NCBI GenBank assembly: GCA_965228875.1
Contig: OZ245843.1
Location: 3,206,616 to 3,270,615, forward strand
Reading direction: 5' to 3'
DNA length: 64,000 nt
DNA from: Thalassobaculaceae bacterium
Lineage (GTDB): Bacteria; Pseudomonadota; Alphaproteobacteria; Thalassobaculales; Thalassobaculaceae
Shown: positions 18,683-58,883 of the stretch, piece after piece
Numbering within the stretch: the stretch's first letter is position 1
How the letters are laid out: the number at the start of each line of letters is the position of its first letter
Notes under the pieces: model-generated
What the model was told of the DNA's origin: nothing
What the model saw: the letters and a program-made list of their open reading frames with translations, nothing else
The model's database searches: none
Made by a program: the position numbers and the translations under genes

Positions 18683-18710
18683 CGCGCGATCCTCCCTGAA
18701 ACGGCGCGCC

Positions 18711-19831: not shown

Positions 19832-19872
19832 GGACGTGGACGGCCCGGATGTCAGCGGCACGGACACCGGCG

Positions 19873-27004: not shown

Positions 27005-27016
27005 ACCGGAACAATC

Positions 27017-31144: not shown

Positions 31145-31249
31145 CTTTCGGGTATCGTGGGCCCGCCGACGCTCGGCCTCGGGAGAATTTGACCACCCGC
31201 CGGTGATCCGCTAAAGCGAGGCATCCTCAGCCTTCTCAATGTGACCTCT

Positions 31250-33276: not shown

Positions 33277-33303
33277 GGCTGAAAGGCGACCGGCCTTTCA
33301 GCC
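33277..33303. terminator. 11-bp stem-loop at a convergent gene junction (possible bidirectional terminator)
   Basis: GGCTGAAAGGC-gaccg-GCCTTTCAGCC; no clear U-tract. Confidence 0.45.
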
Positions 33304-35430: not shown

Positions 35431-35443
35431 GGCTTGGCCGCCG

Positions 35444-38975: not shown

Positions 38976-39047
38976 TGAGATTACCGGGAAAAGGACAGAG
39001 GCGGTTCAGTCCGATGTTCTTAAAAGGCTCGACCCGTCCAATTCCAC

Positions 39048-43981: not shown

Positions 43982-45705
43982 GGCTCGGTCTTCCCCGTCG
44001 TCGTTTCGGAGGACTCGGTCGGCAGCAGGCGCAACGCACCGAACTTGGCGAACCACATGAGCGTGCGCGCGGCGTTTGAGCGGCGGGCCGGTTCGACCGT
44101 CGCGAGCAGGTCGCCGAAGCGGGCGCCGGGCGTGGCGGCGGCCGCGTCGAACAGCGCCATCGCCGAGTCGCGCGGCAGCAGCAGCTCCGGCAGGAACATC
44201 GCCGTATCGTCGTCGAAGATCGCCAGAGCCCGCGTCCGCGTCGTGGCGGCCTCCACCCGGGTGTCGACCGTCGCGTGATCGCTGGGATAGGCGCGGAACG
44301 CCACCATCGGATCGGGGATCACCGGATTCGCGGCGAAGGGCGGCGGCGGCGCGATCTCCGATCCGCTGCGCCGTCGCGCGTTGAGTTCGCCCCACAGCGC
44401 CTGGTACTGCGGGATGATCACCGACCAGTCATAGAGCGCACGGGCCCGGTCGGTGCCGGCCTGACCCATCCGCCGGCGCAGGTCCGCATCGCGGGCCAGC
44501 CGCGCCAGCGCCGCCGCCGTCGCATCGACGTCGACCGAGGTGATCAGGCAGGCGCCGCCGATATAGCGGTCGTAGGACAGCCGATCGCCGCTGAAGGCGC
44601 GGGCGAGCGTGATCCCGGCGCCGGGCATCGCCATGGTCGTGCGGATGCGGTATCCGGTCTCGCCGTCGACCACCGTGTCCTTGTAGCCGTCCCAGTCGCT
44701 GACCACGCAGGGCAGGCCAGCGGCCATCGCCTCGATCGGGGTGATGCCGAAGCTCTCCTGGATGTTGTCGGACAGCGACAGGAACAGATCGGCCGCCGCC
44801 CAGCTCGACCACGATTCGGGCCCCGGCGTGCCGTCGACGAAATGCACCGGCACGTCGGGACAGACCAGCGCCGCGGCCTTCCTGTAGCCGGCCTCGGCGC
44901 CCGGATTCGGGAACTGCCCGGTCATCAGCATGTGCAGCCTGCGACCCTCGCCGGCGAGCTGCTCCTGGGCACGCTGCATCGCCGCGTACATCGGGCTGCT
45001 GTGGGCCTTGGCGTGGAACGCCAAGCGGCCGAGGAACAGCGCCACCACGTCGTCCTCCGCGATCCCGAGCCGGTCGCGCAGCGCCTTGCGCGCCGCACCG
45101 TCGCGGCCGCGGGCGGCGAAAGCGTCGACGTCGAGGCCGAGCGGGATCACCGGCATCTGGACCGGCTGCGGCGGCCGCGCGCCGCTCCGCGCCTCCAGGT
45201 AGGCCCCGTACTCCTCGTGCACGCCGCGGACCACGTCGCGCACGGCGGTCGAGGTGCAGATCAGCGCGTCCCAAGGCTGGAGCGGCGCCGTGAGGTAGTC
45301 GGCCAGGGACTGCATGACCCCCTTGGACGACACCGTGTGGGTGAGACCGCAGAACGAGTAGGCGCGCTGACCGGCGAATCGACGGTCCCAGGCGAAGCGG
45401 CCGATCGTCGGATCCGGGCAGTAGAACACGCCCATCTCCGCGATCTCCGCCGTCCGGTCGAGGGTCACCGCCCGAGCCGAGGGCCGGCGCTCCGGCCGGA
45501 ACGTGTCCTGAACGTCGCGGATCTTGCGCCGGAAGACGTCGTGCACCTCCTGGCGGAAGGTGATGGCGACGAATTCGTCGACGTCGGCGTACCGCACGAA
45601 TCCGTCGAGGAAGCTGGCCCCGGCCACGTGCCGGCCCTTGAGCTGCTTCTGCGCCCCGTCATACGAACCGGGCTCGTACAGGATGGCGGCGTTGGCGGCG
45701 GCCAT
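43978..45705 (-). CDS. GT4 glycosyltransferase
   Basis: GRHVAGASFL, GRLAFHAKAH, SDNIQESFGITPIEAMAAGLP.VVSDWDGYKD. Confidence 0.88.
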   Translation of the reverse strand: MAAANAAILYEPGSYDGAQKQLKGRHVAGASFLDGFVRYADVDEFVAITFRQEVHDVFRRKIRDVQDTFRPERRPSARAVTLDRTAEIAEMGVFYCPDPTIGRFAWDRRFAGQRAYSFCGLTHTVSSKGVMQSLADYLTAPLQPWDALICTSTAVRDVVRGVHEEYGAYLEARSGARPPQPVQMPVIPLGLDVDAFAARGRDGAARKALRDRLGIAEDDVVALFLGRLAFHAKAHSSPMYAAMQRAQEQLAGEGRRLHMLMTGQFPNPGAEAGYRKAAALVCPDVPVHFVDGTPGPESWSSWAAADLFLSLSDNIQESFGITPIEAMAAGLPCVVSDWDGYKDTVVDGETGYRIRTTMAMPGAGITLARAFSGDRLSYDRYIGGACLITSVDVDATAAALARLARDADLRRRMGQAGTDRARALYDWSVIIPQYQALWGELNARRRSGSEIAPPPPFAANPVIPDPMVAFRAYPSDHATVDTRVEAATTRTRALAIFDDDTAMFLPELLLPRDSAMALFDAAAATPGARFGDLLATVEPARRSNAARTLMWFAKFGALRLLPTESSETTTGKTEP

Positions 45706-46784
45706 CACGGGGCTCCCGATGCCGCGTCCCGACCGGATGAGGCGAGGTCGGCGGCGGCGGTCTCGAAGGCCGCGACGATGTTCTCGAGCGTGTCCGGCTC
45801 CCACACGAAGCGGCGTCTCGGGGTCGCCCCCGGAAAATCGGCGCCGGTCTCAACGCCCAGCAGTTCGGCCATCCGATCGACGCCGCGGCCGCTGGCCCTC
45901 ACCACCTCCGGCAGCTTGTTGACCGGCAGGAAGCAGACGGCGCTGGAATCGCCCATGAAATAGTTGACGAAGGCCGGTCCGCCGTTGTCCGCCATGTTGA
46001 TCAGTCCCCGGCGATACATCGCCGCGCGCAACTCCAGATCGACGGCGCCGATGCCATAGACCGGGATGTCGCCGAAGGCGCCGACCTCCTGGCCCGAGGT
46101 CACAAGGTCCGTATCGGGAATGATGATCGGATCGAACCCGCGGTCGCGGACGTAGCGGGCCGCCGCTAGCCAGGCCGCGATGTCGGAGTTCCGCGCCAGC
46201 TCGATCAATGACGTGCGGAGGGTAAAGGTGACCGGCCGTCCCCGCGGCGCGTGGGTCGCCAGCCAGGCGTCAACCTTCCGCAGGGCCGAGGGGTGCGCCT
46301 CGAAGGTGTCGAGCTCCTCGGGCGTGGGCTTCTGATTGAAGAGGTCGGACAGCATGAAGGCCACGCGCGGCTTGTCCAGGGTATAGCCGGGCGTGACGAT
46401 CTGGCTCGGGTGGATGGCCCGGTGCAGCTGGATGAAGTCCTCCCGGCGCTCGAAGGTCAGCACGCCGAGGCAGCGCTTGGCGATGTAGCCGTGGCCGATC
46501 ATGACGTGACGCAGGCGCCAGGTCTTCTCCATGGCGTCGAGCGCCTTGTCCTTCGGCGTCACCATCCGGTAGGCGCCGCCCGGACCCTTGATGAACACCA
46601 GGTTGAACCCGGCGGCCCCCGACCGCAGCGTCCAGAGGTTGGCGAACACCAGGAAATTCATCACGTCGAAGGTGATCGGCGCCGCCGAGAGGTCGTAGAC
46701 CGCGAACAGCGCCGGCTGGAACGGCGCCCGCTGCTCCGTCGCCGTCTCGCCGGCAGCGGGAGCCGCGCCATCTGTCGTCGTCAT
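45705..46784 (-). CDS. Hypothetical protein, possibly a GT-B-like glycosyltransferase
   Basis: Coupled within the GT operon; YDL...PITFD, TFTLR..RNS, IIIPD, R.A.Y...N...NGGP pattern. Family not certain. Confidence 0.55.
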   Translation of the reverse strand: MTTTDGAAPAAGETATEQRAPFQPALFAVYDLSAAPITFDVMNFLVFANLWTLRSGAAGFNLVFIKGPGGAYRMVTPKDKALDAMEKTWRLRHVMIGHGYIAKRCLGVLTFERREDFIQLHRAIHPSQIVTPGYTLDKPRVAFMLSDLFNQKPTPEELDTFEAHPSALRKVDAWLATHAPRGRPVTFTLRTSLIELARNSDIAAWLAAARYVRDRGFDPIIIPDTDLVTSGQEVGAFGDIPVYGIGAVDLELRAAMYRRGLINMADNGGPAFVNYFMGDSSAVCFLPVNKLPEVVRASGRGVDRMAELLGVETGADFPGATPRRRFVWEPDTLENIVAAFETAAADLASSGRDAASGAP

Positions 46785-46791
46785 CGCGCGC

Positions 46792-47784
46792 TCACCCCGG
46801 ATTCAGCCAGTCGCTCTCATAGATCTCATGCCGGTCGAGCATCCGCTCGCCGAAGAACCGTTGATAGTCGGCGCGCGCCTGCTCGTAAAGCTGCGTGGAC
46901 AGGCCCCGCACCCGCCCCGCGGCGAAGGTGAACAGCTTGCGCAGGTAGCTTCGCGCCGCCGGTTCGCCCTTCCCGCCGTCGACGCCGGCCCCGTCCCAGC
47001 CGCCGCTTTCCATCAGGCGCTCCAGGCAGACGACCGAGTAGTCGGCCATGTCGTTGCGCAGGGCGAAAACGGCGAGCTTGGTGAGCCCCGCCACCGCCGC
47101 CTCGCCGCCCCAGGCGGCCACCGTCTCCGGCTTGCGCACGAACACCGCGTCGCAGCCGCACAGCGCGCCGTGCCCGCCGCCGCCAACCAGGTAGCTGAGC
47201 GGCTGTCCCTTGCCGGCGTAGTCGAGGCGCATCAGCCGGAAGCCGCGCTCGTCGATGGCGTGGCGGAAGATGTCGGAGGCCGTCTGGCTGGCGAAGGAAT
47301 CGTCGAACTGCACCTCGATGCGCATGGCCAGCACCCGGTCGAGCGCCGCGGCCCCGCCGCGCATGACCGCCAGTTCCTCGCCCTCGACATCGATCTTCAG
47401 GAAGTCGATCCGGCGGTCCCGGTCGGCGAACACCGCATCGAGGGTGGTGCTCGGCACATCGAACGACCCCTCGACCGTGCCCTCGTCCTTGCGCACCGCA
47501 CCGAACCACAGGCTGTCCGGATTCGGCTTGGTGGTGCCGACATAGCCCTTATGGGCCGTCATCCACAGGGTCAGCGTCGAGTCCGGAACCGCGCCCAGGG
47601 CCATCGGCTCGACCCGCACGTCTTCGCGCGCCGCATACTTCGCCGCGAGCCGCGCGGCCTCCTGCGGCTCCGGCTCGAACATGGTGTAGTCGAGCGGCGC
47701 CTCGTAGCCGCGCCAGGTCGGGTGGATGCCATAGCGGCCGCCGGCATCGACGACGGCGGTGGTCCAGAGATCGGGAGTCGTCAT
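46792..47784 (-). CDS. FkbM-family methyltransferase
   Basis: VVDAGGRYG, FEPEP, TLD, IDFLKIDVEGEEL.V.RG. Confidence 0.85.
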   Translation of the reverse strand: MTTPDLWTTAVVDAGGRYGIHPTWRGYEAPLDYTMFEPEPQEAARLAAKYAAREDVRVEPMALGAVPDSTLTLWMTAHKGYVGTTKPNPDSLWFGAVRKDEGTVEGSFDVPSTTLDAVFADRDRRIDFLKIDVEGEELAVMRGGAAALDRVLAMRIEVQFDDSFASQTASDIFRHAIDERGFRLMRLDYAGKGQPLSYLVGGGGHGALCGCDAVFVRKPETVAAWGGEAAVAGLTKLAVFALRNDMADYSVVCLERLMESGGWDGAGVDGGKGEPAARSYLRKLFTFAAGRVRGLSTQLYEQARADYQRFFGERMLDRHEIYESDWLNPG

Positions 47785-48944
47785 GGGGAGATCCGCTCGA
47801 TGGTGGGGCGGCCGGGATGGGTCGACCAGACGGTACCGGCGAACCCGTCCTGCCGAAGCTTTTCGGAGATCGCCGGCTCGTGGTGATAGGCGCCGATGAA
47901 GATGTCGTCGAGACCGGAGAGCAGGGATCCGGAACGCGGATGGATCTCCGCCACGCCGCCGAGGCCGTAGGCGAGGCGACCGATATAGTCCGGGTTATCG
48001 TCGACGAACCGGGTCGGCGCGCGGCCCTCGGCGAACAGATTGTAGAACGTCGCCCCCTGCGACGTCGCCGCGTAGACCGCCGTGCGCGCAGGATCGCCGT
48101 CGAAGCCGTCGATGAAGGCCTGATGCGCGGCGCGGCGGGCGGTCACCAGGTCGATGCTGGTCCTTGGCGCGTCGATCGTCTCGCCCGCCCTGGTCGACGG
48201 CACCGCGAGCACGCCGACGTCATGGCCCTGCAGGATGTCGTGGGTCCCGGTGATTTCCAGCCCCGCATCCGCCATCAGTCGCGCCCGGGCGGCGGCGTCC
48301 ATGTAGTGCAGATGCTGCACATGGATCTCCATGTAGGCTCCGGACTGCGCGATGTACTCCAGGGTCGGTACTTCCATGTAGGCGAAGCCGCCCGGCGCCA
48401 CCGCGGCCCCCAGCGCGCGCACGAACGGCCGCACGTCGAGGATGTGCTCGACCACCTGGCGGCAGATCACGCCGTCGAAGGTCTCGTCCAGGGTGTCGGG
48501 GCCGAAGAAATCATTGACCACCCGGATGGCGTCGCCGACGTCGGCCAGCAGTTCCGGCAGGTCGTCGTTCGGCTCGACCACGGTGACCTCCGCCCCCAGA
48601 TCCGCCAGCAGACGGGCCAGCGAGCCGGTGCCGCCGCCGACCTCGAGAATGCGCTTTCCGACCAGACGCTCGCGCCCGAGGAAGTCGAGCAGGGTCTGGT
48701 AGCGCTGAACCATCGCCTCGGAGACCGGCCGGTTTGTGGCGGTCTGCCGGCGATAGATCTCGGCGATCGTGTCGGGGGCGATGTCGGTGTTGAAGATGTG
48801 CCCGCAGGACCGGCACTGACGCAGGGACACGTCCTCGAACCGGTCGGTCAGCGACCGGTCGGCCACCACCCAGAACATCTGCGCCCGGGTGGAATACACC
48901 ACCGGCGCGCCGCCGGTATCGCAAAGGGGGCAGACGTCCGCCAT
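47781..48944 (-). CDS. SAM methyltransferase with Zn finger, NDP-sugar C-methyltransferase-like architecture
   Basis: CPLC...CRSCGH, LEVGGGTG, QVVEHI, EVP, QHLHY, C-terminal AVYAA...FVDDNP domain. Confidence 0.78.
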   Translation of the reverse strand: MADVCPLCDTGGAPVVYSTRAQMFWVVADRSLTDRFEDVSLRQCRSCGHIFNTDIAPDTIAEIYRRQTATNRPVSEAMVQRYQTLLDFLGRERLVGKRILEVGGGTGSLARLLADLGAEVTVVEPNDDLPELLADVGDAIRVVNDFFGPDTLDETFDGVICRQVVEHILDVRPFVRALGAAVAPGGFAYMEVPTLEYIAQSGAYMEIHVQHLHYMDAAARARLMADAGLEITGTHDILQGHDVGVLAVPSTRAGETIDAPRTSIDLVTARRAAHQAFIDGFDGDPARTAVYAATSQGATFYNLFAEGRAPTRFVDDNPDYIGRLAYGLGGVAEIHPRSGSLLSGLDDIFIGAYHHEPAISEKLRQDGFAGTVWSTHPGRPTIERISP

Positions 48945-49016
48945 GTCGTCGATCTCGCTCCTTGGGTGCCGCGTGCGCGTGCTATAGGGGCGCCGGACAG
49001 TTCGATCAAGGACGCC

Positions 49017-49964
49017 ATGACCGCGACGACCACCGCGCCGACCACCGCGACGACCGCCCGCAAGGCCTCAGCGACCATCGCCGTCACCGGCGCCGGAGGC
49101 TTTCTCGGCGGCGTGATCGCCCGCCTCCTGGCTCGGTCCGGCCACACCGTCCACGCCTTCGCCCGCACCCCACTCGACCTCGGCGTCGGGATCGTCGCGC
49201 ACGCCTGGGACCCGACCCGCGACACCGCCATGCCGGCATCGGGTCTGGCGGTCGATGCCGTGATCGACTGCGCCTCGGTCCTGCCGCAGCGCGAGCCGGA
49301 CGGGGAGGTCCTGGTGGAGGTCAATCGCCGGCTCTGCGCCGGGGCGCTGGACCTGGCGGCGCGGCGGCGCGGCCGGGCGATCTACATGTCCTCGCAGTCG
49401 GTCTACGGTCGACCGGCGGTCGCGGTCATCGGCGCCGAAACGCCGCCCCGACCCGAAATTCCCTATGGCGAGGCCAAACTGGCGGGCGAAGGAATGCTGG
49501 CGGCGGCGGTCGCCGACGGCCGGATCGCCGGTGCCGCCGCCCTGCGCCTTCCCGCCGTGGTCGGCCGCGGCGCGCACGGCAACTTCCCGGCGACCGCCGC
49601 CAGTCGGATCCTGCGTGGCGAGACGGTGACCCTGTTCAACCCGGACGGCCTCTACAACGCGGCGGTCGGCGCCGCGTCGGTGGCCGTCTTCGCCGAACAT
49701 CTGGCCCTCGGCGTCGGCGGATTTCACGCCGTCTCCCTGGCCTCGCTGCCGCCGATCAGTGTGCGCGCGGCGGTGCGGGCGATCGCCGAGGGCCTGGGAA
49801 TGCCTCTCAGCGCGGAGGAGCGCGCGGCTCCCCACGGCTCGCCGACCATCGACCCCGCGGCGGCTGTCGCCCTGGGGTTCCGGCCCGAGCGGCCCGACGA
49901 TGTCCTGCGGGAGTTCGGGCGGTCGGCCCGAGCGGACATTGCGGCTCCGCGCCCCACGCGATAA
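49017..49964 (+). CDS. NAD-dependent epimerase/dehydratase (extended SDR)
   Basis: VTGAGGFLG, YMSSQSVYG, YGEAK, LRLPAVVG. AAGGA RBS before ATG 49017. Confidence 0.83.
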   Translation: MTATTTAPTTATTARKASATIAVTGAGGFLGGVIARLLARSGHTVHAFARTPLDLGVGIVAHAWDPTRDTAMPASGLAVDAVIDCASVLPQREPDGEVLVEVNRRLCAGALDLAARRRGRAIYMSSQSVYGRPAVAVIGAETPPRPEIPYGEAKLAGEGMLAAAVADGRIAGAAALRLPAVVGRGAHGNFPATAASRILRGETVTLFNPDGLYNAAVGAASVAVFAEHLALGVGGFHAVSLASLPPISVRAAVRAIAEGLGMPLSAEERAAPHGSPTIDPAAAVALGFRPERPDDVLREFGRSARADIAAPRPTR

Positions 49965-50054
49965 GACGGGTCGCGCGCCGCCGACTTCCGCTGGCGCCGA
50001 GAATCCCTATATGCGACCAAGCCGAAGCGACCGAACAAGAGCGAGGACAGCACG

Positions 50055-50975
50055 ATGGCCGGCAACATGGGCGTCGATAACAAATTCCCGGGCAAGGACC
50101 TGAGCCAGGACGACATCGAGAACAAGATCCCGCTGGTCGCCAAGAAAAGCCCGGATCATCGAACCAAATTCACCGTCGGTGGCGTCGAGTTCGGCGGCGA
50201 CCTGGTTCCGGTGCTCGGCGGCCCGAACACGGTCGAGAACGAGGAACTGATCGTGAAGACCGCGATCGGCATCAAGAAGTCCGGCGGTCACATGCTGCGC
50301 GGCGGCGCCTTCAAGCCGCTCACCTTCCCGTACCGCTCGCCGAAATTCTTCGAACCGCGCGAGGACGGCCTGAAGTGGCTGCAGATCGCCAAGCAGGAGA
50401 CCGGCCTGCCGATCGTCACCGAGGTCATGGAGATCTCGAAGATCGATATCGTCGCGCAGAACTGCGACATGCTGCAGATCGGCACCCGCAACATGCAGAA
50501 CTACCCGCTGCTGACCGAGGTCGGAAAGACCGGCATGCCGGTGATGCTCAAGCGCGGCTACGGCTCCAGCCTGCGCGATTGGCTGATGGCGGCCGAGTAC
50601 ATCGCGCTGGAGCACGACAAGCTCGGCCAGGGACAGAAGATCGTGCTGTGCGAGCGCGGCGTGGTCTCCAACCACACCCACCGCGACACCTCGCGCTTCC
50701 TGCTCGACCTGCAGGTCATCCCGGCGGCCCAGGAAGTCACCCACCTGCCGATCATGTCCGACCCGTCCCACGCCACCTTCTGGCAGCCCTGGGTCAAGTC
50801 GATGATGCTGGCCTCGATCGCCGCCGGCGCCGACGGCCTGATGCTGGAGGTCCACCCGGACCCGAAGAACGCCGCCGTCGACCCCCTGCAGTGCTCCAGC
50901 CTGGAGCAGTTCGACGACATCATGAAGGCCTGCCGGCCGGTGGCCCAGGCGATCGGGCGCACGGTCGACGCCTGA
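50055..50975 (+). CDS. Type I-beta DAHP/KDO8P-synthase-fold PEP aldolase with non-canonical motifs
   Basis: GGPNTVE, LRGGAFKPLT, TEVM, QIGTRNMQNY.LL, LKRG, LCERG, DPSH, EVHPDP..A.VD. Confidence 0.87.
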   Translation: MAGNMGVDNKFPGKDLSQDDIENKIPLVAKKSPDHRTKFTVGGVEFGGDLVPVLGGPNTVENEELIVKTAIGIKKSGGHMLRGGAFKPLTFPYRSPKFFEPREDGLKWLQIAKQETGLPIVTEVMEISKIDIVAQNCDMLQIGTRNMQNYPLLTEVGKTGMPVMLKRGYGSSLRDWLMAAEYIALEHDKLGQGQKIVLCERGVVSNHTHRDTSRFLLDLQVIPAAQEVTHLPIMSDPSHATFWQPWVKSMMLASIAAGADGLMLEVHPDPKNAAVDPLQCSSLEQFDDIMKACRPVAQAIGRTVDA

Positions 50976-50986
50976 GGGGCAGCGCG

Positions 50987-51859
50987 ATGAGCTTCTCCGG
51001 GCCGATCGACAACGCGGTCGAGATCACCACCGGGCGCTATGCCGCCATTCTCGGGGCGACGCCGTCGAAAGGCGCGCGCTCGCCGCTGCTGTGGAACGCC
51101 GCGTTCAAGGCGGCCGGGATCGACGCGGTCATGCACCCGATGGACACCCGTCCGGAGGTGCTGGGCGAGGTCGTCGCCGCCCTGAAGGCGGACCCCCGCT
51201 ATGTGGGCGGCGCCATCGCCGTCCCCCACAAGCAGACCGTCGGCGCCTTCCTGGATCGGCTGGAACCGGAGGCGGAGCGCATCGGGGCGGTGAACGCGAT
51301 CTACCGCGACGGTGACGCGCTGGTCGGCGCCAATACGGACGGCGCCGGCGCGCTCGCCCAGATCGAGGCGCTGGTCGGTGGTGCGGACGCGCTGAAGAGG
51401 CGGCGGGCGACGCTGATCGGCCTCGGCGGCGCGGGTGTCGCGGTTGCAGCCTACCTGGCCGTGCGCACGGCATCCCTGACCCTCGCCAACCGGAGCCGGG
51501 CGGCGGCCGAGGCCGCAGCGGGCAAGCTCGGCGCGACCGCCGTCGACTATCCGCTGTCGGCCGAAATCCTCGCCGCCACCGACCTTCTGGTCAACGCCAG
51601 CACGGTCGGCCACCAGGACGGCCCGGCCGGCTCGCCGGTGGCGCAAGACCTGCTCGCCTCTCTGCCGGACGGCGCGGCGGTGTACGACGTGATCTATCAG
51701 CCGCGGGAGACGCCGCTGCTGGCGGCGGCCGGTGCGCGGGGCCTGGCCACGCTGGACGGGCTGGGCATGAACCTGGATCAGGCGGTGATCGCCTTCGCCA
51801 AGGCGGTGCCGGGCGCGCTCGACACGGATCGGATCCGCGAGGCGATGCGGGCGGCGTGA
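50987..51859 (+). CDS. Shikimate dehydrogenase superfamily protein (divergent substrate site)
   Basis: ARSP, VPHK, IGAVN, GANTD, GLGGAG, ANRS, NAST.G, DVIYQP.ETPLL, DGLGM..DQA. Confidence 0.85.
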   Translation: MSFSGPIDNAVEITTGRYAAILGATPSKGARSPLLWNAAFKAAGIDAVMHPMDTRPEVLGEVVAALKADPRYVGGAIAVPHKQTVGAFLDRLEPEAERIGAVNAIYRDGDALVGANTDGAGALAQIEALVGGADALKRRRATLIGLGGAGVAVAAYLAVRTASLTLANRSRAAAEAAAGKLGATAVDYPLSAEILAATDLLVNASTVGHQDGPAGSPVAQDLLASLPDGAAVYDVIYQPRETPLLAAAGARGLATLDGLGMNLDQAVIAFAKAVPGALDTDRIREAMRAA

Positions 51860-52392
51860 ACGGGACGGCCAAGATGAAGCGCATTCTTCTCCACGCCGAC
51901 GCCCCGGGTCTGGCGGTGGCGACGGTCGACGAAACCACGACCGAGCCGCTCGATCAGGTGGCGCGGCGCTACCACGCGGTGATCCCGGCCGATCACATGG
52001 CGACGCCGCCGGTCCTGGCGGAAGGCATCCGGGTCGCCTTCCTGACCACCGACTACGACAGTTTCGAGCGGCTGCGGCGGATCGATCTGCCCGGCGACCT
52101 GCTGTTCAAGCCGTCGGCGGTCGCCCGCCTCGACCTGCTGCGCGCCGCGCGGCGGACACTGGTCACCGCCCGCGCCATCCGCGAGGGCGAGATCATCACC
52201 GAGGCGGATATCGCCGAGGTGATCGGCGGCGACGGCGTCGGCGCCGAGATGCGCGACCAGATGGTCGGCCGCGCCGCGCTGTACGACATGATGGAGGGCA
52301 TGGCCGTCGATTTCGGCTTCCTCTCGGAGGACGCGACCGGCGGCAACCGCACCGGCCCGGACGGCCCGAAACGTACCGGAGAACTGATGTGA
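51856..52392 (+). CDS. Protein with C-terminal SAF/AFP-like domain resembling the NeuB C-terminus
   Basis: ARRTLVTARAIREGEIITEADI....G.G.....DQMVGR.A..D...G. Start could alternatively be ATG 51874. Confidence 0.68.
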   Translation: MNGTAKMKRILLHADAPGLAVATVDETTTEPLDQVARRYHAVIPADHMATPPVLAEGIRVAFLTTDYDSFERLRRIDLPGDLLFKPSAVARLDLLRAARRTLVTARAIREGEIITEADIAEVIGGDGVGAEMRDQMVGRAALYDMMEGMAVDFGFLSEDATGGNRTGPDGPKRTGELM

Positions 52393-53075
52393 TCAGCGTC
52401 GTCCTTCGCGCCAAGAACGAACGCGCCTGGATCGGGCGTTGCCTGACCGCGCTCAAGCGCCAGCGCCTGCCCGACCTGGACGTGATCCTGGTCGACAACG
52501 ACTCGACCGACGGCACCGTGGAATGCGCCGAGGCCTACGGCTGTACCCTGCGCAACATCACCCGCGAGGAGTTTTCCTACGGCCGGGCGCTGAACATGGG
52601 CATCGAGGCGGCCAGGCACGAGACCGTCGCCCTGCTCTCCTCGCACTGCGTGCCGGTGGACGAGCTTTGGGCCGACTACGCCTACGCCCATCTCGGACCC
52701 GAGGGGAACCGGAACACCTGCGGCATCTACGGTCGCCAGGAGCCGCTGCCGGAGACCAGCGCGATCGACCGGCGCGATCTCTGGACGACGTTCCGCGACG
52801 AGCGGGTGACGCAGCGGGTCGACTACTTCTTCCACAACGCCAATTCGGCGATCCGCAAGTCGATCTGGAACGACGAGCCCTTCGACGAGAAGATCCGCGG
52901 CGTCGAAGATCGGGAATGGGGCAAGCGCATGATCGGCGCCGGTCACGACATCGTCTACGAGCCCGGGATGCGCGCCTATCACCACCACGGCATCCACCAG
53001 GGCCGCGACGAGGGCCGCGCCAAGCGTGTCGCCGAGGTCATCGAGGTGATCCGCACGGGAGGGCCGATCCAGTGA
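52389..53075 (+). CDS. GT2 glycosyltransferase
   Basis: ISVVLRAKNE, VDNDSTDGT, FSYGRALN.G, YGRQ.P, FFHNANS.IRK, ED..W. Confidence 0.87.
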   Translation: MISVVLRAKNERAWIGRCLTALKRQRLPDLDVILVDNDSTDGTVECAEAYGCTLRNITREEFSYGRALNMGIEAARHETVALLSSHCVPVDELWADYAYAHLGPEGNRNTCGIYGRQEPLPETSAIDRRDLWTTFRDERVTQRVDYFFHNANSAIRKSIWNDEPFDEKIRGVEDREWGKRMIGAGHDIVYEPGMRAYHHHGIHQGRDEGRAKRVAEVIEVIRTGGPIQ

Positions 53076-53734
53076 GCGCGCCTCTCGTCGTCATTCCGAT
53101 CCTGTCCGCCGCGGAGAGCACGCCGCGCCTGACCATCCCGATCCGCGGCCGCTCCAGCCTGTGGCGCACCCTGGACAGTGCCGTCGCCGACCTGCCCGGC
53201 GCGCCGGTCGTGGTCACCACCGACGACGCCGAGATCCGCGCCTCCGTGGAACGCTACGGCGCCCCGGTCGTCGCCCACGCCCGCTCGGCCGAGGGTTACA
53301 CCAAGGCGGTGGCCGAGGTGGCGCGAGAATACGGGGCGGAGATCGTGGTGATCCTGGAGCCGACCCACCCGTTCCGGCCGCGCGGCCTGATCCGGCGGAC
53401 CGCCGACAACCTGGGCAAGCGCGCGCATCTCGACAGCGTCGTGTGCGTGCGCCGGTTCACCGCCAACCTGTGGCGCCGCACCTCCGACGGCGAGATCCTG
53501 GCGATGACCGAAGGCGGCGAGGCGCGCGACGCCGAGTATTTCCAGGAGATGGTCGGCCTCGCGCTGGCCGCGCGCCCGCACCTGCTGGACCAGGGCCGTC
53601 GACTCGGCGACGCGGTCGGCTTCGAGGTCCTGGAACAGACCTGGGCGCTGGCCGACGTGCGCGACGACGTCAGCTTCGCTGCCGCCGAAGCGCTTGCCGA
53701 CTACCTGATCCGCCTCGAGGAGATCTCCGCATGA
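53072..53734 (+). CDS. Degenerate CMP-ulosonate synthetase (NeuA-fold) paralogue
   Basis: VVIPI, VVVTTDDAEI, VILEPTHPFR, DSVVCV, DVRD..SF..AE; lacks the ARGGSKG..KN loop. Confidence 0.65.
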   Translation: MSAPLVVIPILSAAESTPRLTIPIRGRSSLWRTLDSAVADLPGAPVVVTTDDAEIRASVERYGAPVVAHARSAEGYTKAVAEVAREYGAEIVVILEPTHPFRPRGLIRRTADNLGKRAHLDSVVCVRRFTANLWRRTSDGEILAMTEGGEARDAEYFQEMVGLALAARPHLLDQGRRLGDAVGFEVLEQTWALADVRDDVSFAAAEALADYLIRLEEISA

Positions 53735-54477
53735 CCAGCCCCACGGGGACACTGCCGGACGACACCGGCGACAACGATCGCGTCATCGCCCTGATCCCGG
53801 CGCGCGGCGGCTCCAAGGGCCTGCCCGGCAAGAACGTGAAGCCGATCGGCGGCAAGCCGCTGATCGCCCACTCGATCCACCACGCGATCGAGAGCGGCGT
53901 GTGCGACCGGGTGCTGGTGACCACCGACGACGACGACATCTTCGCCGCCGCCGGCGAGGCCGGCGCCTGGACCCCGTTCAAGCGCGAGAAGTCCCTGGCC
54001 GAGGACCTGACGCCGACCGAACCGGTGCTGGTCGACGCCCTGGCCCGCGCCGAGGAGATCGACGGCCCCTTCGGCATCGTGGTGTTCCTGCAGCCGACCG
54101 ACATCTTCCGCAAGCCGGAATGGATCGCCCAGGCGGTCAACACGCTGAAGGAAAAGCGGCACCTCGATTCCTGCTTCGTCGCGAACAAGACACACAAGAA
54201 CTTCTGGACCGAGCAGCCGGATGGCACCTGGAAGCGCGTCTATGACTGGATGGGGGTCTACGGCCCGCGCCAGACACGCACACCGCTGTTCCGGGAGGAT
54301 ACCGGCATCGCCTCCGCCCTGCGCGCCGCGCTGATCCGCGCCGGCCGGCGGACCGGCGACCATGCCGAGGTTCTGCCGATCGACAGCACCGCGTCCGGCA
54401 TCGATATCCACGACGCCTTCGACTTCTACCTCGCGGAGAAGGCGCTGGAGTGGTTTGAAACCCACGAGATGAAATGA
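53731..54477 (+). CDS. neuA: Acylneuraminate/ulosonate cytidylyltransferase (NeuA/PseF/LegF family)
   Basis: ALIPARGGSKGLPGKN, GKPLI, VTTDD, LQPT, DIHDAFDF..AE. Confidence 0.88.
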   Translation: MTSPTGTLPDDTGDNDRVIALIPARGGSKGLPGKNVKPIGGKPLIAHSIHHAIESGVCDRVLVTTDDDDIFAAAGEAGAWTPFKREKSLAEDLTPTEPVLVDALARAEEIDGPFGIVVFLQPTDIFRKPEWIAQAVNTLKEKRHLDSCFVANKTHKNFWTEQPDGTWKRVYDWMGVYGPRQTRTPLFREDTGIASALRAALIRAGRRTGDHAEVLPIDSTASGIDIHDAFDFYLAEKALEWFETHEMK

Positions 54478-55586
54478 CGCTCACCGGGGCCGCCGGCGAT
54501 CCGCTGATCCACGCCATCGGCTGGTTCGACGGCCGCTACGGCTACAACGTGATGACCCGCGGGCTGTTCGACCCGCTGTCCCGCCGCCTGCCGGTCCTGG
54601 CCAGCCCGATCCGCCACAAGTCCGGCCCGGTCGACGAGGACAAGGCGGCGATCCCGCGCCACTTCCCCGACGCGACACGAATCACCGTCACGCTGCTCTA
54701 CGGCTCGATGGCGCGGGTGATGCACGACGTCGACGGGCTCCGCGTGTGCTTCACCCTGTGGGAATCGACGCGCCTGCCCAAGGGCTGGGTCGAAGCCCTG
54801 GACCGCCACACCGATCGGATCTGGACCGCCACGCCCTGGGGCAAGCGGGTGTTCGCCGCCAACGGCCTCGACCCCGATCGGATCGACGTCGTGCCCCTCG
54901 GCATCGACCCGGACCTGTTCAACCCGGACCTGGAACCCACGGGCGCGGTGCCGAAGGACGGCACCTACACCTTTCTGTCGGTCGGGCGCTGGGAGAAGCG
55001 CAAGGGCATGGCCGACCTCGTGAAGGCGTTCGACGAGGAATTCTCGGACCGCGACGACGTCCGCCTCGTCCTGGGCGGTCTGCACGCCAATCAGCTCGAT
55101 CTCGATCTGCGCGCCGTTCTGTCGCCGCTCGGCCTGCGCCGGCCCGACCGCCTGAAGATCATCCCGCCGGTCGGCCGGCACACCACCTTCGCCGGCATCT
55201 ACACCGCCTGCGACGCCTTCGTCGCCCCGACCCGGGCCGAGGGATGGGGCCTGCCGATGACCGAGGCCATGGCCTGCGGCCTGCCGACCATCGTCACGGG
55301 CTACAGCGGACCGAGCGCCTTCATCGCCGAGCATGCCTACCGCATCGACCACCGGCTGGTGGCGATCGACGAGCCGTTCTTCGAGACCGAGGATGGCGAT
55401 CTCGGCCAATGGGCGGAGCCGGACTGGCACCACCTGCGCCACCTGATGCGCCACGTCTACGAGAACCGCGACGAGGCCAGAGCGCGCGGCCTCGCGGGGT
55501 CGACGCATGTGCGCGAGCGGGTGTCCTGGGACCGGGCGGCGGACATCGCCGCCGGGCACTTGCGGGCACTCGCGAACCGCCCGTAA
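54474..55586 (+). CDS. GT4 glycosyltransferase
   Basis: TLWEST, VVPLGID, SVGRWEKRKG, PTRAEGWGLPMTEAMACGLP, WAEPD. Confidence 0.88.
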   Translation: MTLTGAAGDPLIHAIGWFDGRYGYNVMTRGLFDPLSRRLPVLASPIRHKSGPVDEDKAAIPRHFPDATRITVTLLYGSMARVMHDVDGLRVCFTLWESTRLPKGWVEALDRHTDRIWTATPWGKRVFAANGLDPDRIDVVPLGIDPDLFNPDLEPTGAVPKDGTYTFLSVGRWEKRKGMADLVKAFDEEFSDRDDVRLVLGGLHANQLDLDLRAVLSPLGLRRPDRLKIIPPVGRHTTFAGIYTACDAFVAPTRAEGWGLPMTEAMACGLPTIVTGYSGPSAFIAEHAYRIDHRLVAIDEPFFETEDGDLGQWAEPDWHHLRHLMRHVYENRDEARARGLAGSTHVRERVSWDRAADIAAGHLRALANRP

Positions 55587-55619
55587 AACGACAGGGATCG
55601 ATTGCAGGGGCGCGTCACG

Positions 55620-56336: not shown

Positions 56337-56348
56337 GGAGCACAGACC

Positions 56349-57155: not shown

Positions 57156-57168
57156 CCCGGCACCGGGC

Positions 57169-57990
57169 TCAACCCGCGGCGGCGCTCCCGGGTCGGGTGA
57201 AGAGGATGTTTCCGGTGTGCTTCACGCCGACATCCTTCTCGCGGACCGCCCGTTCCATGTCCTCGTCCTTGGCGAAGCCGGCGGCGACCAGGGCGGCGGC
57301 GACCTCCTGATGGAACGGCTCGTTGATCATCAGTTCGATCATGATGCTCCGCAGGCGCGGATCCCGCAGCAGACGGGACGCGCCGGCAATCACCGCGTGC
57401 TCCAGCCCGTCCACGTCGATCTTCAGGTGTGTCGGGCAGTCGAACCCGCAGGTGTAGACCAGATGATCCAGGGTGGCCGTCGCCACGCCCTGGTGGCCCT
57501 GCGGCTCCTCGACGACGACGCGCAGGCCGTCCGTGACCAGAACCTGATGACCGCTGCCGCCGACGGTGTTGCTGCGCACCTGCATGAGCCCGTAGCCGAC
57601 GGTATCGCTGATCCCCAGGCAGTACGCCGCGCAGGTCGCCGTCAGTTCGTTGACCCGAAGGTTGTCGTTCAGGACGGCATAGTTGGACGCCTCCGGTTCG
57701 AAGGCATAGACCCTGGCCCCGCGCGTCGCCGCCGCCCAGAGAGTGTAGAGGCCGATGTTCGCCCCGACGTCGTACAGGACCGCCCCCTGCGGCATGCCGC
57801 GGATCCACGCGATCGTCTCGGGCTCCTTGTCGAGCAGATGCGACACCCGCCAGGCGCACATCCGGCCCGGCACGTAGAACCGGAGGTCGACGTCCCCGCC
57901 GGCAACGTGGATATAGGGCTTGCTCGCCTCGAACTTGGCGCTGCGGGCGATGTGGCGCTTTCGGTCATCTTCGCTGAGGTCGGTCCTCAT
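57169..57990 (-). CDS. FkbM-family methyltransferase
   Basis: KEPET..WI, YDVGANIGLYT, AFEPEASN, PTHLKIDVDGLE. Confidence 0.88.
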   Translation of the reverse strand: MRTDLSEDDRKRHIARSAKFEASKPYIHVAGGDVDLRFYVPGRMCAWRVSHLLDKEPETIAWIRGMPQGAVLYDVGANIGLYTLWAAATRGARVYAFEPEASNYAVLNDNLRVNELTATCAAYCLGISDTVGYGLMQVRSNTVGGSGHQVLVTDGLRVVVEEPQGHQGVATATLDHLVYTCGFDCPTHLKIDVDGLEHAVIAGASRLLRDPRLRSIMIELMINEPFHQEVAAALVAAGFAKDEDMERAVREKDVGVKHTGNILFTRPGSAAAG

Positions 57991-58883
57991 GGCGTGGCCC
58001 GCGCCGCCGCCGATCCGCCGCCCGACAGCTCGTACCCGATGGCGGTCATCAGGGCGCCGGCATTGCGCTCGGCGATGGCGATCTCCTCCGGCGTCATCTC
58101 GTCGCGCCAGCCGCCGACCTCGCCCCGGCGGTAGTGGGAGGTCGCATCGCGCTCGCCGCGCTTGCGCCCGCCAGACAACCGCTCGAAGCTCGCGGCCTCC
58201 ATCGCCGCCCGGACCATCTCCGGATCCTCCGGCGCGCCGATGAAGCGGAAGATCTCCAGGGCGTGACGGAACGTGTCGGCATGCAGATCCTCGTAGCGGA
58301 TCTCCATGTACGCCCGTCCCTTGGCCGCCGAGCGCGCCGCCTCGATCCGCGCCACCCAGTCATGGGAATACGCCTCGACATATTCCGGCCGGGTCAGGTC
58401 GTCCGGCAGCCGCGGGCGGAAGCGGGCGAAACCCGATACCGCGCCGTCCCGCGGGTCGCGGATGATGTGCACCATCCGGGCCTTGGGATAGACCCGCCAC
58501 ACCCGCTGGGCGTGGAACAGGTTGTCCGGATTCTTCTCGCCGATCACGACCAGGTCGTCGGGGTCCTTGTCGCCGAGATTGGCGGCGGCCAGGGCCGCGA
58601 ACGCCATTTGGAACACCGGCCCCATGTGCGCCGGCTTCGGTCCGACGACACCCGGCGCCCAGGTCCGCGAGCCCTTCTCGCGCTTCTTGGTATAGTCCCA
58701 GAGCACCTTGTAGACGTCGGGAACGACATCGTTCATGAAATGCGACTCGCCGAGGCACAGCACCTTGGGATGCGCGTTCAGCATCTGCTGCAACCACGTG
58801 GTCCCGGACCTCGGCAGTCCCGCGACGAAGAACACCGGCAGGCTGTTCAGGCGGCGGACCGTGGCCTCGATCGAGTCAGGCAT
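57987..58883 (-). CDS. PAPS-dependent sulfotransferase
   Basis: 5'-PSB GLPRSGTTW, GEKNP, 3'-PB IIRDPRD..VS, RYEDL, RRG.VGGW. Confidence 0.88.
   Translation of the reverse strand: MPDSIEATVRRLNSLPVFFVAGLPRSGTTWLQQMLNAHPKVLCLGESHFMNDVVPDVYKVLWDYTKKREKGSRTWAPGVVGPKPAHMGPVFQMAFAALAAANLGDKDPDDLVVIGEKNPDNLFHAQRVWRVYPKARMVHIIRDPRDGAVSGFARFRPRLPDDLTRPEYVEAYSHDWVARIEAARSAAKGRAYMEIRYEDLHADTFRHALEIFRFIGAPEDPEMVRAAMEAASFERLSGGRKRGERDATSHYRRGEVGGWRDEMTPEEIAIAERNAGALMTAIGYELSGGGSAAARATP

Follow-up and report, generated by a model that had tools for sequence, protein, structure and literature searches.

We identified an operon in a marine alphaproteobacterium of the Thalassobaculaceae that probably (with a likelihood that we put at about 70%) specifies a pathway, independent of NeuB, to a CMP-activated 3-deoxy-2-ulosonic acid for incorporation into a surface glycan. 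Judged from the sequence, its product would most likely be an acidic cell-surface sugar resembling Kdo or sialic acid. A literature search found no description of such a pathway, which agrees with a preliminary description of the locus that had called the route undescribed.

Gene content and genomic context of the operon

The analyzed window comprised 64,000 nt of assembly GCA_965228875.1 (contig OZ245843.1, positions 3,206,616 to 3,270,615, forward strand). GC3 frame analysis and ORF lists placed seven + strand genes at positions 50055-55586 of this window. These genes and their neighbors are as follows.

45705..48944, − strand: 359-aa protein, FkbM methyltransferase, and class I methyltransferase (divergent flank)
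49017..49964, + strand: SDR epimerase/dehydratase-family protein, 315 aa (Pfam Epimerase, 71.5 bits)
50055..50975, + strand: DAHPSl, type I-beta DAHP-synthase-like aldolase (Pfam, NCBIfam, alignments, tree)
50987..51859, + strand: AroEl, shikimate/quinate dehydrogenase family (Pfam, NCBIfam, alignments)
51874..52392, + strand: SAF protein, 172 aa from the ATG at 51874 (Pfam, NCBIfam, structure model)
52389..53075, + strand: GT2, short soluble glycosyltransferase, 228 aa (Pfam Glycos_transf_2, 70.9 bits)
53072..53734, + strand: dCT, divergent cytidylyltransferase (Pfam CTP_transf_3, 23.0 bits; cutoff, 22.6)
53731..54477, + strand: CT, intact NeuA/PseF-like cytidylyltransferase (Pfam CTP_transf_3, 82.1 bits)
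54474..55586, + strand: GT4-family (GT-B) glycosyltransferase (Pfam Glycos_transf_1, 64.9 bits)
55602-56336 and 56349-57155, + strand: two ORFs of 244 aa and 268 aa, continuing the + strand run (GC3 analysis)
57169..58892, − strand: FkbM methyltransferase and sulfotransferase (convergent syntenic flank)

Start and stop codons overlap by 4 nt at four operon junctions (GTGA at SAF/GT2 and GT2/dCT; ATGA at dCT/CT and CT/GT4), and 11 nt separate DAHPSl from AroEl. The last of these overlaps couples GT4 translationally to CT. An alternative GTG start of the SAF gene at 51856 overlaps the AroEl stop. The single, tightly coupled seven-gene operon of the preliminary description was borne out in gene content, coordinates, and overlaps. 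The operon probably starts with the SDR gene, which lies 90 nt upstream of DAHPSl, is syntenic in Thalassobaculum-type loci (52 to 67% identity), and is missing from minimal loci. Downstream, the 244-aa ORF had no Pfam match, and the 268-aa ORF showed a faint, below-cutoff match to 2OG-FeII_Oxy_3 (18.2 bits). The divergent flank is conserved beside the operon in Thalassobaculum-type loci, most of which also have a sulfotransferase ortholog downstream. The setting is a glycosyltransferase-rich island with TPR-GT paralogs, sugar-nucleotide enzymes, a T1SS, and RTX proteins.

Whole-genome family searches located two further aroE homologs, aroB, and three aroQ genes outside the window, and the genome also carries a I-alpha AroG-like gene (GPCS, KPRTT), a separate Cys-type KdsA (GPCQ, KANRT), and kdsB elsewhere. 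A PseI locus 1.3 Mb away encodes PseI (486.8 bits; cutoff, 340) together with PseG, a methylase for Pse, and a dedicated cytidylyltransferase. The Kdo, Pse, and aromatic pathways have their own genes elsewhere, and the operon is therefore dispensable for them; DAHPSl and AroEl are extra paralogs and not housekeeping aro genes. NeuB, aroB, and aroQ are absent from the window and were placed elsewhere by these searches, so that the locus had rightly been called NeuB-less with respect to the window but not with respect to the genome, given the PseI locus. No NeuC- or KdsD-type domain was found among the ~60 GC3-supported window ORFs scanned, the sole SIS protein of the window being a GmhA-like SIS_2 protein (18080-18718). 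The cassette itself contains no phosphatase, NeuC/PseG-type aldose-forming hydrolase/epimerase, or KdsD-type isomerase.

A DAHP-synthase-like aldolase with an altered aldose site

DAHPSl matched Pfam DAHP_synth_1 (163.8 bits) and scored slightly under the NCBIfam DAHPS cutoffs (302.4 versus 335 and 259.4 versus 267.75). Scores against the NCBIfam KDO8P_synth and BagF/FevY models were 81.9 bits (cutoff, 314) and 215 bits (cutoff, 700), respectively, and the NeuB profile PF03102 matched DAHPSl alone, at 22.0 versus a cutoff of 22.1. The best solved-structure matches were 1vs1 and 1zco (213 and 192 bits). In alignments to these two structures, DAHPSl has GPNT where solved DAHPSs have GPCS, i.e., the metal Cys is replaced by Asn, and the segment KPRTSPYS-FQG is replaced by KPLTFPYRSPKFFEP. 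KPRTS, which binds the phosphate of erythrose-4-phosphate (E4P), thereby becomes KPLTF, with Leu in place of the phosphate-binding Arg and with Leu and Phe taking over both polar phosphate ligands, and a 3-residue loop insertion (PYRSPKFF) lengthens the beta2-alpha2 loop. The K of KP, GxRN, KRG, RF.LD, DPSH, EVHP, and the distal Asp are retained, which preserves the PEP-binding residues and three of the four metal-site residues (His, Glu, Asp). We take the metal, PEP, and KPRT phosphate sites to have the roles assigned to them in the structural literature on DAHPS and KDO8PS.

These replacements were shared by close homologs: among the matches listed, KPL[TS]FPY occurred in 120/120 and GPN in 113/120, and the canonical GPC plus KPR[TS] was found in 121 of 150 library representatives. 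In a 72-row tree, all 19 KP[LCA][TS]F rows formed one clade (SH-aLRT, 99), and the Asn forms made up a 14-row subclade (SH-aLRT, 98) nested within the I-beta DAHPSs. Arg94 of the new loop was nearly invariant in a 27-row alignment but missing from two of five Cys-type KP[LCA]TF relatives (P0154 and P0132); PYR[SG]xK[FY], including the loop Lys (Lys97), was conserved in the Asn subclade. By these comparisons, DAHPSl branches off from the type I-beta DAHP synthases, with a predicted remodeling of the aldose site and a retained PEP site. The loss of KPRT is no proof of a nonphosphorylated substrate, because Arg94 and the Lys of the new loop could still bind phosphate or carboxylate.

The dehydrogenase, the cytidylyltransferases, and the SAF protein

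AroEl matched both Pfam domains of its family (Shikimate_dh_N, 64.9 bits) and fell below all NCBIfam aroE/ydiB equivalog cutoffs (best score, 160.5 versus 295). Alignments to 2egg, 1nvt, and 7cok showed retention of the K of PHK and the D of NTD (the Lys/Asp dyad), the Q, and the Tyr of IYQP; the NRS/NRT motif is also kept. Ala stands at three substrate-site positions, which correspond to the first Ser of SxS and to Asn and Thr in NxTxPxK, and GARSP was present in 22 of 23 orthologs. The third-best PDB match was the 5-ketofructose reductase 7cok (96.9 bits), which lacks both the Ser pair and the IYQP Tyr, whereas in AroEl the second Ser and this Tyr are retained; their counterparts in AroE bind the substrate carboxylate. 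AroEl would be a tailoring, nonobligatory step, since one complete genome (G006) has DAHPSl and CT and lacks AroEl and dCT. To the redox role proposed earlier for this enzyme must be added that at least one natural variant does without it.

CT carries IPARGGSKGLPGKN, aligned to the NeuA structures 9ftb and 9t4z, and is conserved across 23 rows; its best NCBIfam family model was PseF (103.7 bits; cutoff, 205.7). dCT has no PARGGSKG...K CTP loop, including its Arg and Lys, and is a divergent paralog of the CMP-ulosonate cytidylyltransferase family. It had been regarded as a degenerate NeuA, yet it is no decaying gene, being conserved across 20 rows with invariant motifs of its own (iPvL..ST, thPfrPrg, YfqEmVGLALA, and D.rDD...a.Ae). 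Orthologs of the adjacent GT2 are 70 to 97% identical.

The SAF protein scored 18.4 bits for the SAF domain (Pfam cutoff, 21), and matched the NeuB C terminus (TIGR03569 positions 267-327). Its antifreeze-like (AFL/SAF) domain, of the NeuB/PseI type, comes after a small alpha/beta N-domain. In the predicted structure (mean pLDDT, 86.3), residues 93-154 gave Z scores of 10.3 to NeuB 288-349 and PseI 285-342 and of 11.0 to type III antifreeze protein, and this model assigns the domain specifically to the NeuB/PseI AFL type. The operon lacks a NeuB TIM barrel, as the preliminary description had stated, but this AFL domain gives it one part of the NeuB-like architecture.

The GT2 and GT4 families normally take NDP-sugars, not CMP-ulosonates, and no recognizable CMP-ulosonate transferase family was present among the Pfam-scanned operon and window genes. 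The glycosyltransferases had also been called FlmG-like, a label for which the support is architectural: four TPR proteins in the island are paralogs of the TPR protein adjoining pseI.

Distribution of the cassette

In the neighborhood analysis of homologs suggested in the preliminary description, DAHPSl was flanked by AroEl as well as CT at 22 of the 33 loci where it is at least 62% identical; a GT4 ortholog occurred in 9 of these 33. In each of the seven genomes tested whose DAHPSl looks like an "orphan," the AroEl...dCT-CT block lies at another site. Cassette genes were found near none of the canonical, 40 to 49% identical DAHPSs (0/46 loci). Among 400 other, evenly sampled genomes of the class (E ≤ 1e-60 for DAHPSl; E ≤ 1e-50 for AroEl and CT), 4 genomes, representing 4 families, had matches to all three proteins, and the remaining 396 had matches to none of them. 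The DAHPSl-AroEl-CT association is far above chance. DAHPSl and CT form the fixed core, to which two modules are added: AroEl and the co-inherited, optional SAF-GT2-dCT. The order flippase-CT-DAHPSl-AroEl, with two adjoining sulfotransferases, was seen outside the Alphaproteobacteria in a locus from Methylomirabilota.

One observation counts against a glycan-bound ulosonate. A 65% identical homolog bears the species name Azospirillum halopraeferens (the match is to the species name and not to a strain), and the O-antigen repeat reported for A. halopraeferens Au4, whose polysaccharide was released by mild acid, has no ulosonic acid (PMC4902059).

Proposed pathway and alternative explanations

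In the pathway that we propose, DAHPSl would join PEP to some aldose different from E4P, and the NAD(P)-dependent AroEl would oxidize or reduce a single carbon in the pyranose ring of the ulosonate, most likely C4, next to the 3-deoxy CH2, by analogy with the conversion of quinate to 3-dehydroquinate. CT, with its intact NeuA-type motif, would make the CMP-sugar from CTP, and the SAF-GT2-dCT module may tailor or channel the sugar. Attachment would fall to GT4 and/or the TPR-domain transferase paralogs of the island, and the methyl- and sulfotransferases on either flank may modify the sugar further. The earlier outline of this scheme (ulosonate synthesis by a DAHPS-fold aldolase, AroE-like redox chemistry, and NeuA activation) is compatible with the extra paralogs, the strict co-occurrence with an intact CT, and the putatively remodeled aldose site.

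An unlikely alternative, yet the strongest of those considered, is that the aldolase still takes a sugar phosphate (e.g., a C5/C6 aldose phosphate) via the relocated Arg94 and Lys97 of the beta2-alpha2 loop, giving a known or near-known ulosonate of the Kdo/Kdn type, from which a housekeeping phosphatase such as KdsC would remove the phosphate; in that case the novelty of the sugar would be smaller than assumed. The near-invariance of Arg94, the conserved loop motif of the Asn subclade, and the lack of any cassette enzyme supplying a free aldose are in its favor. So is the Cys-to-Asn exchange, which mimics metal-independent KDO8P synthases, enzymes that use a sugar phosphate. On the other hand, both polar phosphate ligands have given way to Leu and Phe, the Arg is absent from P0154 and P0132, no cassette version seen has a phosphatase gene, and kdsA and kdsB are already present in the genome.

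Far less probable is that CT merely provides extra known CMP-Kdo or CMP-Pse from the kdsA or pseI encoded elsewhere, with DAHPSl and AroEl either being passengers that have nothing to do with it or serving as ordinary isozymes of the shikimate pathway. Capsule loci of other bacteria do contain extra Kdo-pathway copies, and PseF is the best family model of CT. The preliminary description had named such a known sugar made elsewhere as its refuting case; it is argued against by the dedicated cytidylyltransferases of both Kdo and Pse in this genome, by the shared 4-of-400 pattern and adjacency in 22/33 loci, by the missing DAHPS Cys and Arg of DAHPSl, by the subcutoff equivalog scores of DAHPSl and AroEl, and by the housekeeping aroG, aroB, aroQ, and aroE located elsewhere. 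We give least credence to a soluble small molecule (a shikimate-like/keto-acid secondary metabolite or an osmolyte) that the cytidylyltransferase activates for another purpose. DAHPS paralogs are known in natural-product clusters, for which the BagF/FevY model exists, and no dedicated CMP-ulosonate transferase family was recognized; however, GT2 and GT4 overlap start to stop with the cytidylyltransferases, the surrounding island is rich in glycosyltransferases, TPR-transferase paralogs, and sugar-nucleotide enzymes, a polysaccharide flippase adjoins the Methylomirabilota version, and DHQ synthase or another cyclase is absent.

Comparison with known systems

The type I-beta DAHP synthases (unregulated 1vs1 from A. 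pernix and 1zco from P. furiosus; regulated 1rzm from T. maritima) belong to the same PF00793 TIM-barrel family, and DAHPSl falls inside their group in the tree. It differs from them by Asn for the metal Cys, by KPLTF plus the 3-residue insertion for KPRTS, and by being unlinked to aro genes and always accompanied by a cytidylyltransferase. The Kdo pathway (KdsA, KdsC, KdsB) follows the same logic, in which PEP and an aldose are joined by a DAHP_synth_1-family enzyme before CTP_transf_3 activation, and metal-independent KdsA is typically marked by Asn at the position of the metal Cys; in contrast, DAHPSl lacks the KANRS motif, and the operon has an extra dehydrogenase and no KdsD/KdsC paralog. 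With the NeuB/NeuA-type pathways (Neu5Ac, Pse, Leg), the operon shares the PARGGSKG motif of CT, an AFL (SAF) domain, and the setting in a surface-glycan island with TPR-domain transferase paralogs like the one adjoining pseI, but it has no NeuB TIM barrel, UDP-sugar-hydrolyzing epimerase, aminotransferase, or acetyltransferase, and it encodes the SAF domain as a protein of its own, of 172 aa. AroEl shares the Pfam domains, Lys/Asp, NTD, Gln, and NRS/NRT motif of the shikimate/quinate dehydrogenases and differs from them by Ala at the first Ser of SxS and at Asn/Thr of NxTxPxK; the 5-ketofructose reductase 7cok demonstrates that the fold of this family can act on a keto-sugar ring.

Gene organization of the cassette

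The window (G000:C1:3206616-3270615 of the source genome) lies within a complete 4.96-Mb chromosome of about 69% GC, and its best protein and DNA matches were to Thalassobaculum and Thalassobaculaceae. It constitutes a glycan island with several GT4 and GT1-like transferases, methyltransferases, a sulfotransferase, PhyH-type oxygenases and a UDP-galactopyranose mutase. A conserved rpoN (sigma-54)-hpf-ptsN (EIIA-Ntr) group on the minus strand, together with an Hsp20 gene, bounds the island at 60660-63999. At 58735-60783, ORFs on opposite strands overlap: the plus-strand ORF (628 aa) showed a weak trypsin-like match and the minus-strand ORF (602 aa) a strong PhyH dioxygenase match. Since GC at third codon positions favors the minus-strand PhyH gene, the plus-strand ORF is probably a shadow. 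A heptose-type sugar operon occupies 8537-19997 (minus strand). It encodes a split transketolase (two genes), a transaldolase, a SIS_2 (GmhA-like) protein, a HAD phosphatase, a PfkB kinase fused to a cytidylyltransferase-like domain, a GDP-mannose-4,6-dehydratase-like protein, other SDRs, a UDP-Glc/GDP-Man dehydrogenase-like protein, a Gfo/Idh/MocA protein and a methyltransferase; taken together, these genes seem self-sufficient for converting pentose-phosphate intermediates into a modified nucleotide-heptose.

The gene run on the plus strand was called from third-position GC analysis and ORF lists:

49017-49964, +, SDR epimerase/dehydratase
50055-50975, +, DAHP-synthase-like aldolase (DAHPSl)
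50987-51859, +, shikimate-dehydrogenase-like protein (AroEl)
51874-52392, +, SAF protein
52389-53075, +, glycosyltransferase GT2
53072-53734, +, divergent cytidylyltransferase paralogue (dCT)
53731-54477, +, intact NeuA/PseF-like cytidylyltransferase (CT)
54474-55586, +, glycosyltransferase GT4
55602-56336, +, ORF without assignment
56349-57155, +, ORF without assignment

Pfam and NCBIfam assignments bore out the gene list of the preliminary description. Consecutive reading frames overlap by GTGA (SAF protein/GT2 and GT2/dCT) or ATGA (dCT/CT and CT/GT4). A promoter and terminator scan of 48800-58200, which is uninformative at 69% GC, returned no promoter-like and one terminator-like site, fewer than in shuffled sequences.

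A DAHP synthase lineage with an altered active site

DAHPSl carries the DAHP synthase domain (PF00793, DAHP_synth_1; 163.8 bits versus a cutoff of 25.5), and the closest solved structures were the unregulated type I-beta DAHP synthases 1vs1 (213 bits) and 1zco (192 bits), while KDO8P synthase structures scored at most 64 bits. The protein stayed below the curated cutoffs for DAHP synthases (NF006421, 302.4 versus 335; TIGR01361, 259.4 versus 267.75) and below the KdsA equivalog cutoff (TIGR01362, 81.9 versus 314). The NeuB TIM barrel model PF03102 scored 22.0 against a cutoff of 22.1, over 87 residues. Alignment to 1vs1 and 1zco showed that the PEP-binding and remaining metal-site motifs are kept (FKP, GTRN, LKRG, SRFLLD, DPSH, EVHP and the distal Asp); these motifs were invariant in the DAHPSl alignment (A2). 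The metal-ligand Cys is absent, with GPNT(VE) at the position where both structures have GPCS. The Arg of KPR(T/S) is likewise absent: DAHPSl reads KPLTF, and the stretch KPRTSPYS-FQG is replaced by KPLTFPYRSPKFFEP. To our knowledge, the Cys of GPC(S/T) is a metal ligand in all DAHP synthases; metal-independent KDO8P synthases have an Asn in place of the metal-ligand Cys. Binding of the phosphate group of erythrose 4-phosphate (E4P) falls to the Arg and Ser of the KPRTS motif.

Among the homologues listed (64 to 96% identity to DAHPSl), KPL[TS]FPY was found in 120 of 120 and GPN in 113, the remaining 7 giving no match to the search pattern. Canonical GPC plus KPR[TS] was present in 121 of 150 representatives drawn from a library of 1.84 billion proteins, and KP[L/C/A/S/T]T variants were a minority. 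A quick maximum-likelihood tree was calculated from 72 rows, which included 12 of the 120 close homologues and left out representatives outside the length range of 250 to 420 residues as well as two thirds of the canonical ones. All 19 rows with KP[LCA][TS]F formed one clade (SH-aLRT, 99), and the Asn forms constituted a 14-row subclade (SH-aLRT, 98) nested among the I-beta DAHP synthases. DAHPSl fell inside this I-beta group, and the source genome's own KdsA formed a long outgroup. An inserted loop of DAHPSl contains an Arg that was nearly invariant in a 27-row alignment and a Lys that is conserved in the Asn subclade. With these two residues conserved, the substrate may still bear an anionic group.

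AroEl retains the catalytic dyad with a changed substrate site

Both shikimate dehydrogenase domains are present in AroEl, and its scores were below every aroE/ydiB equivalog cutoff (best, NF001312, 160.5 versus 295; TIGR00507, 149.4 versus 200.2). In alignments with 2egg and 1nvt, the catalytic Lys/Asp dyad (Lys of PHK, Asp of NTD) is kept, as are the Gln, the Tyr of IYQP and the NRS/NRT motif. The SxS site is changed to GARSP where both structures have HSxSP, and the NxT site reads GA(I/V)AVPHK instead of NVTxPxK; we take the SxS and NxT residues of AroE to be shikimate binding. Among the AroEl orthologues, NTD was conserved in 23 of 23 and GARSP in 22 of 23. The third-best solved match was the 5-ketofructose reductase 7cok (96.9 bits), a sugar-ring-acting member of the family that has neither the Ser pair nor the Tyr. 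In AroE, the Ser pair and the Tyr bind the substrate carboxylate. Because one Ser and the Tyr are kept, AroEl would be predicted to act on a carboxylate-bearing ring substrate. A 3-deoxy-2-ulosonic acid in its pyranose form is an oxa-analogue of quinate, from which we infer, by analogy only, that the redox site of AroEl would be C4.

Cytidylyltransferases and a stand-alone SAF domain

CT showed the PF02348 family domain (82.1 bits versus 22.6) and a CTP loop of the PARxxSxxxPxKN type, IPARGGSKGLPGKN, when aligned to NeuA 9ftb and 9t4z. NeuA structures were the best-aligning ones; CT is conserved in 23 rows and did not reach the PseF equivalog cutoff (103.7 versus 205.7). For dCT, the Pfam score was at threshold (23.0 versus 22.6); IPILSAAESTPRL stands at the position of the CTP loop, so that the Arg and Lys of the loop are missing, and neither position is conserved across 20 rows. 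The preliminary description had termed this gene a degenerate NeuA. Decay does not fit its conservation in 20 rows with motifs of its own, including a C-terminal D.rDD...a.Ae resembling the GIDIH.afDf.LAe of CT, and by this sequence pattern dCT is a diverged yet maintained paralogue. It may bind a CMP-sugar or serve as a subunit of CT.

The SAF protein was modeled from 15 orthologues (mean pLDDT, 86.3). Structure comparison of the model identified residues 93-154 as an antifreeze-like (SAF) domain, with matches to type III antifreeze protein (Z, 11.0), residues 288-349 of NeuB 4ipi (Z, 10.3; rmsd, 1.3 over 61 residues) and residues 285-342 of PseI 8h2c (Z, 10.3; rmsd, 1.2 over 58 residues; 26% identity). 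The Pfam SAF score was 18.4 versus a cutoff of 21. The N-terminal part (residues 1-92) folds as a small alpha/beta domain, whose matches, to assorted (beta/alpha) barrels or halves, are weak (Z below 4). Judged from the structural matches of the modeled residues 93-154, the operon encodes a NeuB-style antifreeze-like (AFL) domain as a separate protein. A Rosetta-stone search scored none of 5432 candidates as a longer, fused form, which is weak evidence. A complex prediction for DAHPSl and the SAF protein, run without controls, scored 0.00 and is uninformative on barrel capping as in NeuB.

Distribution and modularity of the cassette

The search for related loci kept 79, of which 33 (L014 to L046) carry a DAHPSl of at least 62% identity. 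Their flanks were searched by tblastn (E of at most 1e-8, at least half of the query covered). Both AroEl and CT were detected in 22 of these 33 loci, CT alone in one (L021) and AroEl alone in one (L032), where the contig ends; one locus on a 2.4-kb contig (L023) had no cassette partner, and nothing was detected in the flanks of the other 8. Beside the canonical DAHP synthases of 40 to 49% identity (46 loci from cyanobacteria and one Firmicutes), no cassette genes were found. Whole-genome searches of seven of the eight genomes with nothing detected (all except that of L038) revealed an AroEl orthologue (60 to 66% identity) and a dCT-CT pair elsewhere in all seven, in one of them with the block about 18 kb from DAHPSl. 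This separation of DAHPSl in some Nisaea genomes means that the cassette is not always a single operon. At L028 (genome G001, about 2.560-2.583 Mb), as in some Nisaea, DAHPSl is about 18 kb from an AroEl-...-dCT-CT block, adjoining cobalamin genes; at L030, DAHPSl adjoins metH/metF.

When 400 other genomes, sampled evenly from the class, were searched (E of at most 1e-60 for DAHPSl and 1e-50 for AroEl and CT), each of the three proteins matched the same 4 genomes, from 4 families, and none of the other 396, with the caveat that kin are not independent. A locus from Methylomirabilota (L043) comprises a flippase, CT, DAHPSl, AroEl and two sulfotransferases. SAF, GT2 and dCT were all present in 18 of the 22 loci holding AroEl and CT. 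They are jointly missing in L019 and L020, where DAHPSl-AroEl-CT remains, and the whole genomes of these loci (G007 and G008, respectively) contained no dCT orthologue. On the complete chromosome of G006 (L021), CT directly follows DAHPSl; this whole genome contained no dCT and no AroEl orthologue, the best match being of housekeeping type (39%). The reduced versions in G006, G007 and G008 argue that DAHPSl and CT, the synthase and the activating enzyme, are the core, and that AroEl and SAF-GT2-dCT are tailoring modules. These natural reduced cassettes are useful natural experiments for assigning the steps. One DAHPSl orthologue (G187:C200:4141-5028, from a 79%-complete genome) contains a single in-frame TGA, which could mean that the copy is broken, that the codon is recoded or that the sequence contains an error.

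Possible acceptors

The window encodes further proteins that may bear on the destination of the sugar:

25745-27013, TPR protein with C-terminal domain
33298-35610, TPR protein with C-terminal domain
36642-39002, TPR protein with C-terminal domain
42191-44395, TPR protein with C-terminal domain
5577-6398 and 39099-40712, RTX calcium-binding repeat proteins (273 and 537 aa)
27999-31207, type I secretion ABC transporter and HlyD

The four TPR proteins are paralogous, through their C-terminal non-TPR part (21 to 31% identity), to a TPR protein adjoining pseI elsewhere in the genome (L093, 11621-13429). This relationship points to an expansion, within the island, of a family of transferases directed at ulosonates or proteins. 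The preliminary description had likened the glycosyltransferases to FlmG, a type of flagellin glycosyltransferase defined by an N-terminal TPR region, a C-terminal transferase domain and the use of CMP-Pse. No flagellin gene was found in the window, and the RTX proteins are candidate secreted glycan acceptors. The sugar could be attached to a polysaccharide, to flagellin or to a secreted RTX protein. A homologue of 65% identity (P0099) carries the species name Azospirillum halopraeferens. The O-antigen repeat published for A. halopraeferens Au4 (PMC4902059) is without ulosonic acid, which speaks weakly against an O-antigen role in that case.

Discussion

The preliminary description had proposed a CMP-ulosonate pathway that lacks NeuB and is built from shikimate-pathway folds, and had set against it the possibility of ordinary aro enzymes alongside a NeuA acting on Pse, Leg, Neu or Kdo. 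The source genome allows these possibilities to be weighed. Elsewhere it encodes an I-alpha AroG-like protein (GPCS, KPRTT), a Cys-type KdsA (KANRT), two further aroE homologues, aroB, three aroQ and kdsB. DAHPSl and AroEl share the folds of DAHP synthase and AroE; we nevertheless rejected them as ordinary isozymes on the basis of their scores below the cutoffs and the housekeeping copies elsewhere. A pseudaminic acid locus comprises PseI (486.8 bits versus a cutoff of 340), PseG, a Pse-associated methylase, its own cytidylyltransferase and a TPR protein; PseI, at 4.56 Mb, is the sole true NeuB-family protein of the genome. Kdo and Pse each have a dedicated activating enzyme, and CT as an extra supply of CMP-Kdo or CMP-Pse was therefore rejected as well; the objection raised in the preliminary description is weakened accordingly. 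A role of the cassette in making a soluble metabolite was considered and rejected.

The cassette is real, conserved and misannotated. Most likely (at roughly 70%), it makes and CMP-activates a 3-deoxy-ulosonic acid by means of a DAHP synthase offshoot, and the sugar itself may be new. A fuller reading, which we hold tentatively and at slightly less than even odds, is that a DAHP synthase lineage lost the metal Cys and the phosphate-binding Arg and became the synthase of a novel ulosonic acid, using an aldose that is perhaps nonphosphorylated or deoxy. The product would be tailored by C4 redox chemistry through a quinate-dehydrogenase-like enzyme, CMP-activated and carried, possibly in methylated or sulfated form, on the surface of bacteria from several phyla in marine and soil habitats. 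With the natural module variants (core only, with AroEl, and with SAF-GT2-dCT), this chemistry is open to direct tests in Thalassobaculum and Nisaea strains that can be cultured. Among titles and abstract openings from searches of the open-access full-text literature, no account of this gene combination was found.

Among surface sugars, the ulosonic acids (Kdo, sialic, pseudaminic and legionaminic acids) are of key importance and are recognized by phages, immune systems and lectins. If the proposed role is true, genes annotated everywhere as "3-deoxy-7-phosphoheptulonate synthase" and "shikimate dehydrogenase" would include a third synthase lineage and point to a new sugar, metabolic reconstructions that count them as aromatic amino acid biosynthesis would have to be corrected, and the cassette would be a clean example of the recruitment of a primary-metabolism pathway. 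We know of no ulosonic acid route without a KdsA- or NeuB-type synthase. The cassette follows the same logic as the Kdo and nonulosonate pathways, namely, condensation of PEP with an aldose and then CMP activation; if the fuller reading holds, ulosonate synthases would have arisen independently a third time, in addition to KdsA and NeuB, and the sialic acid/Kdo class of sugars would gain a new member.
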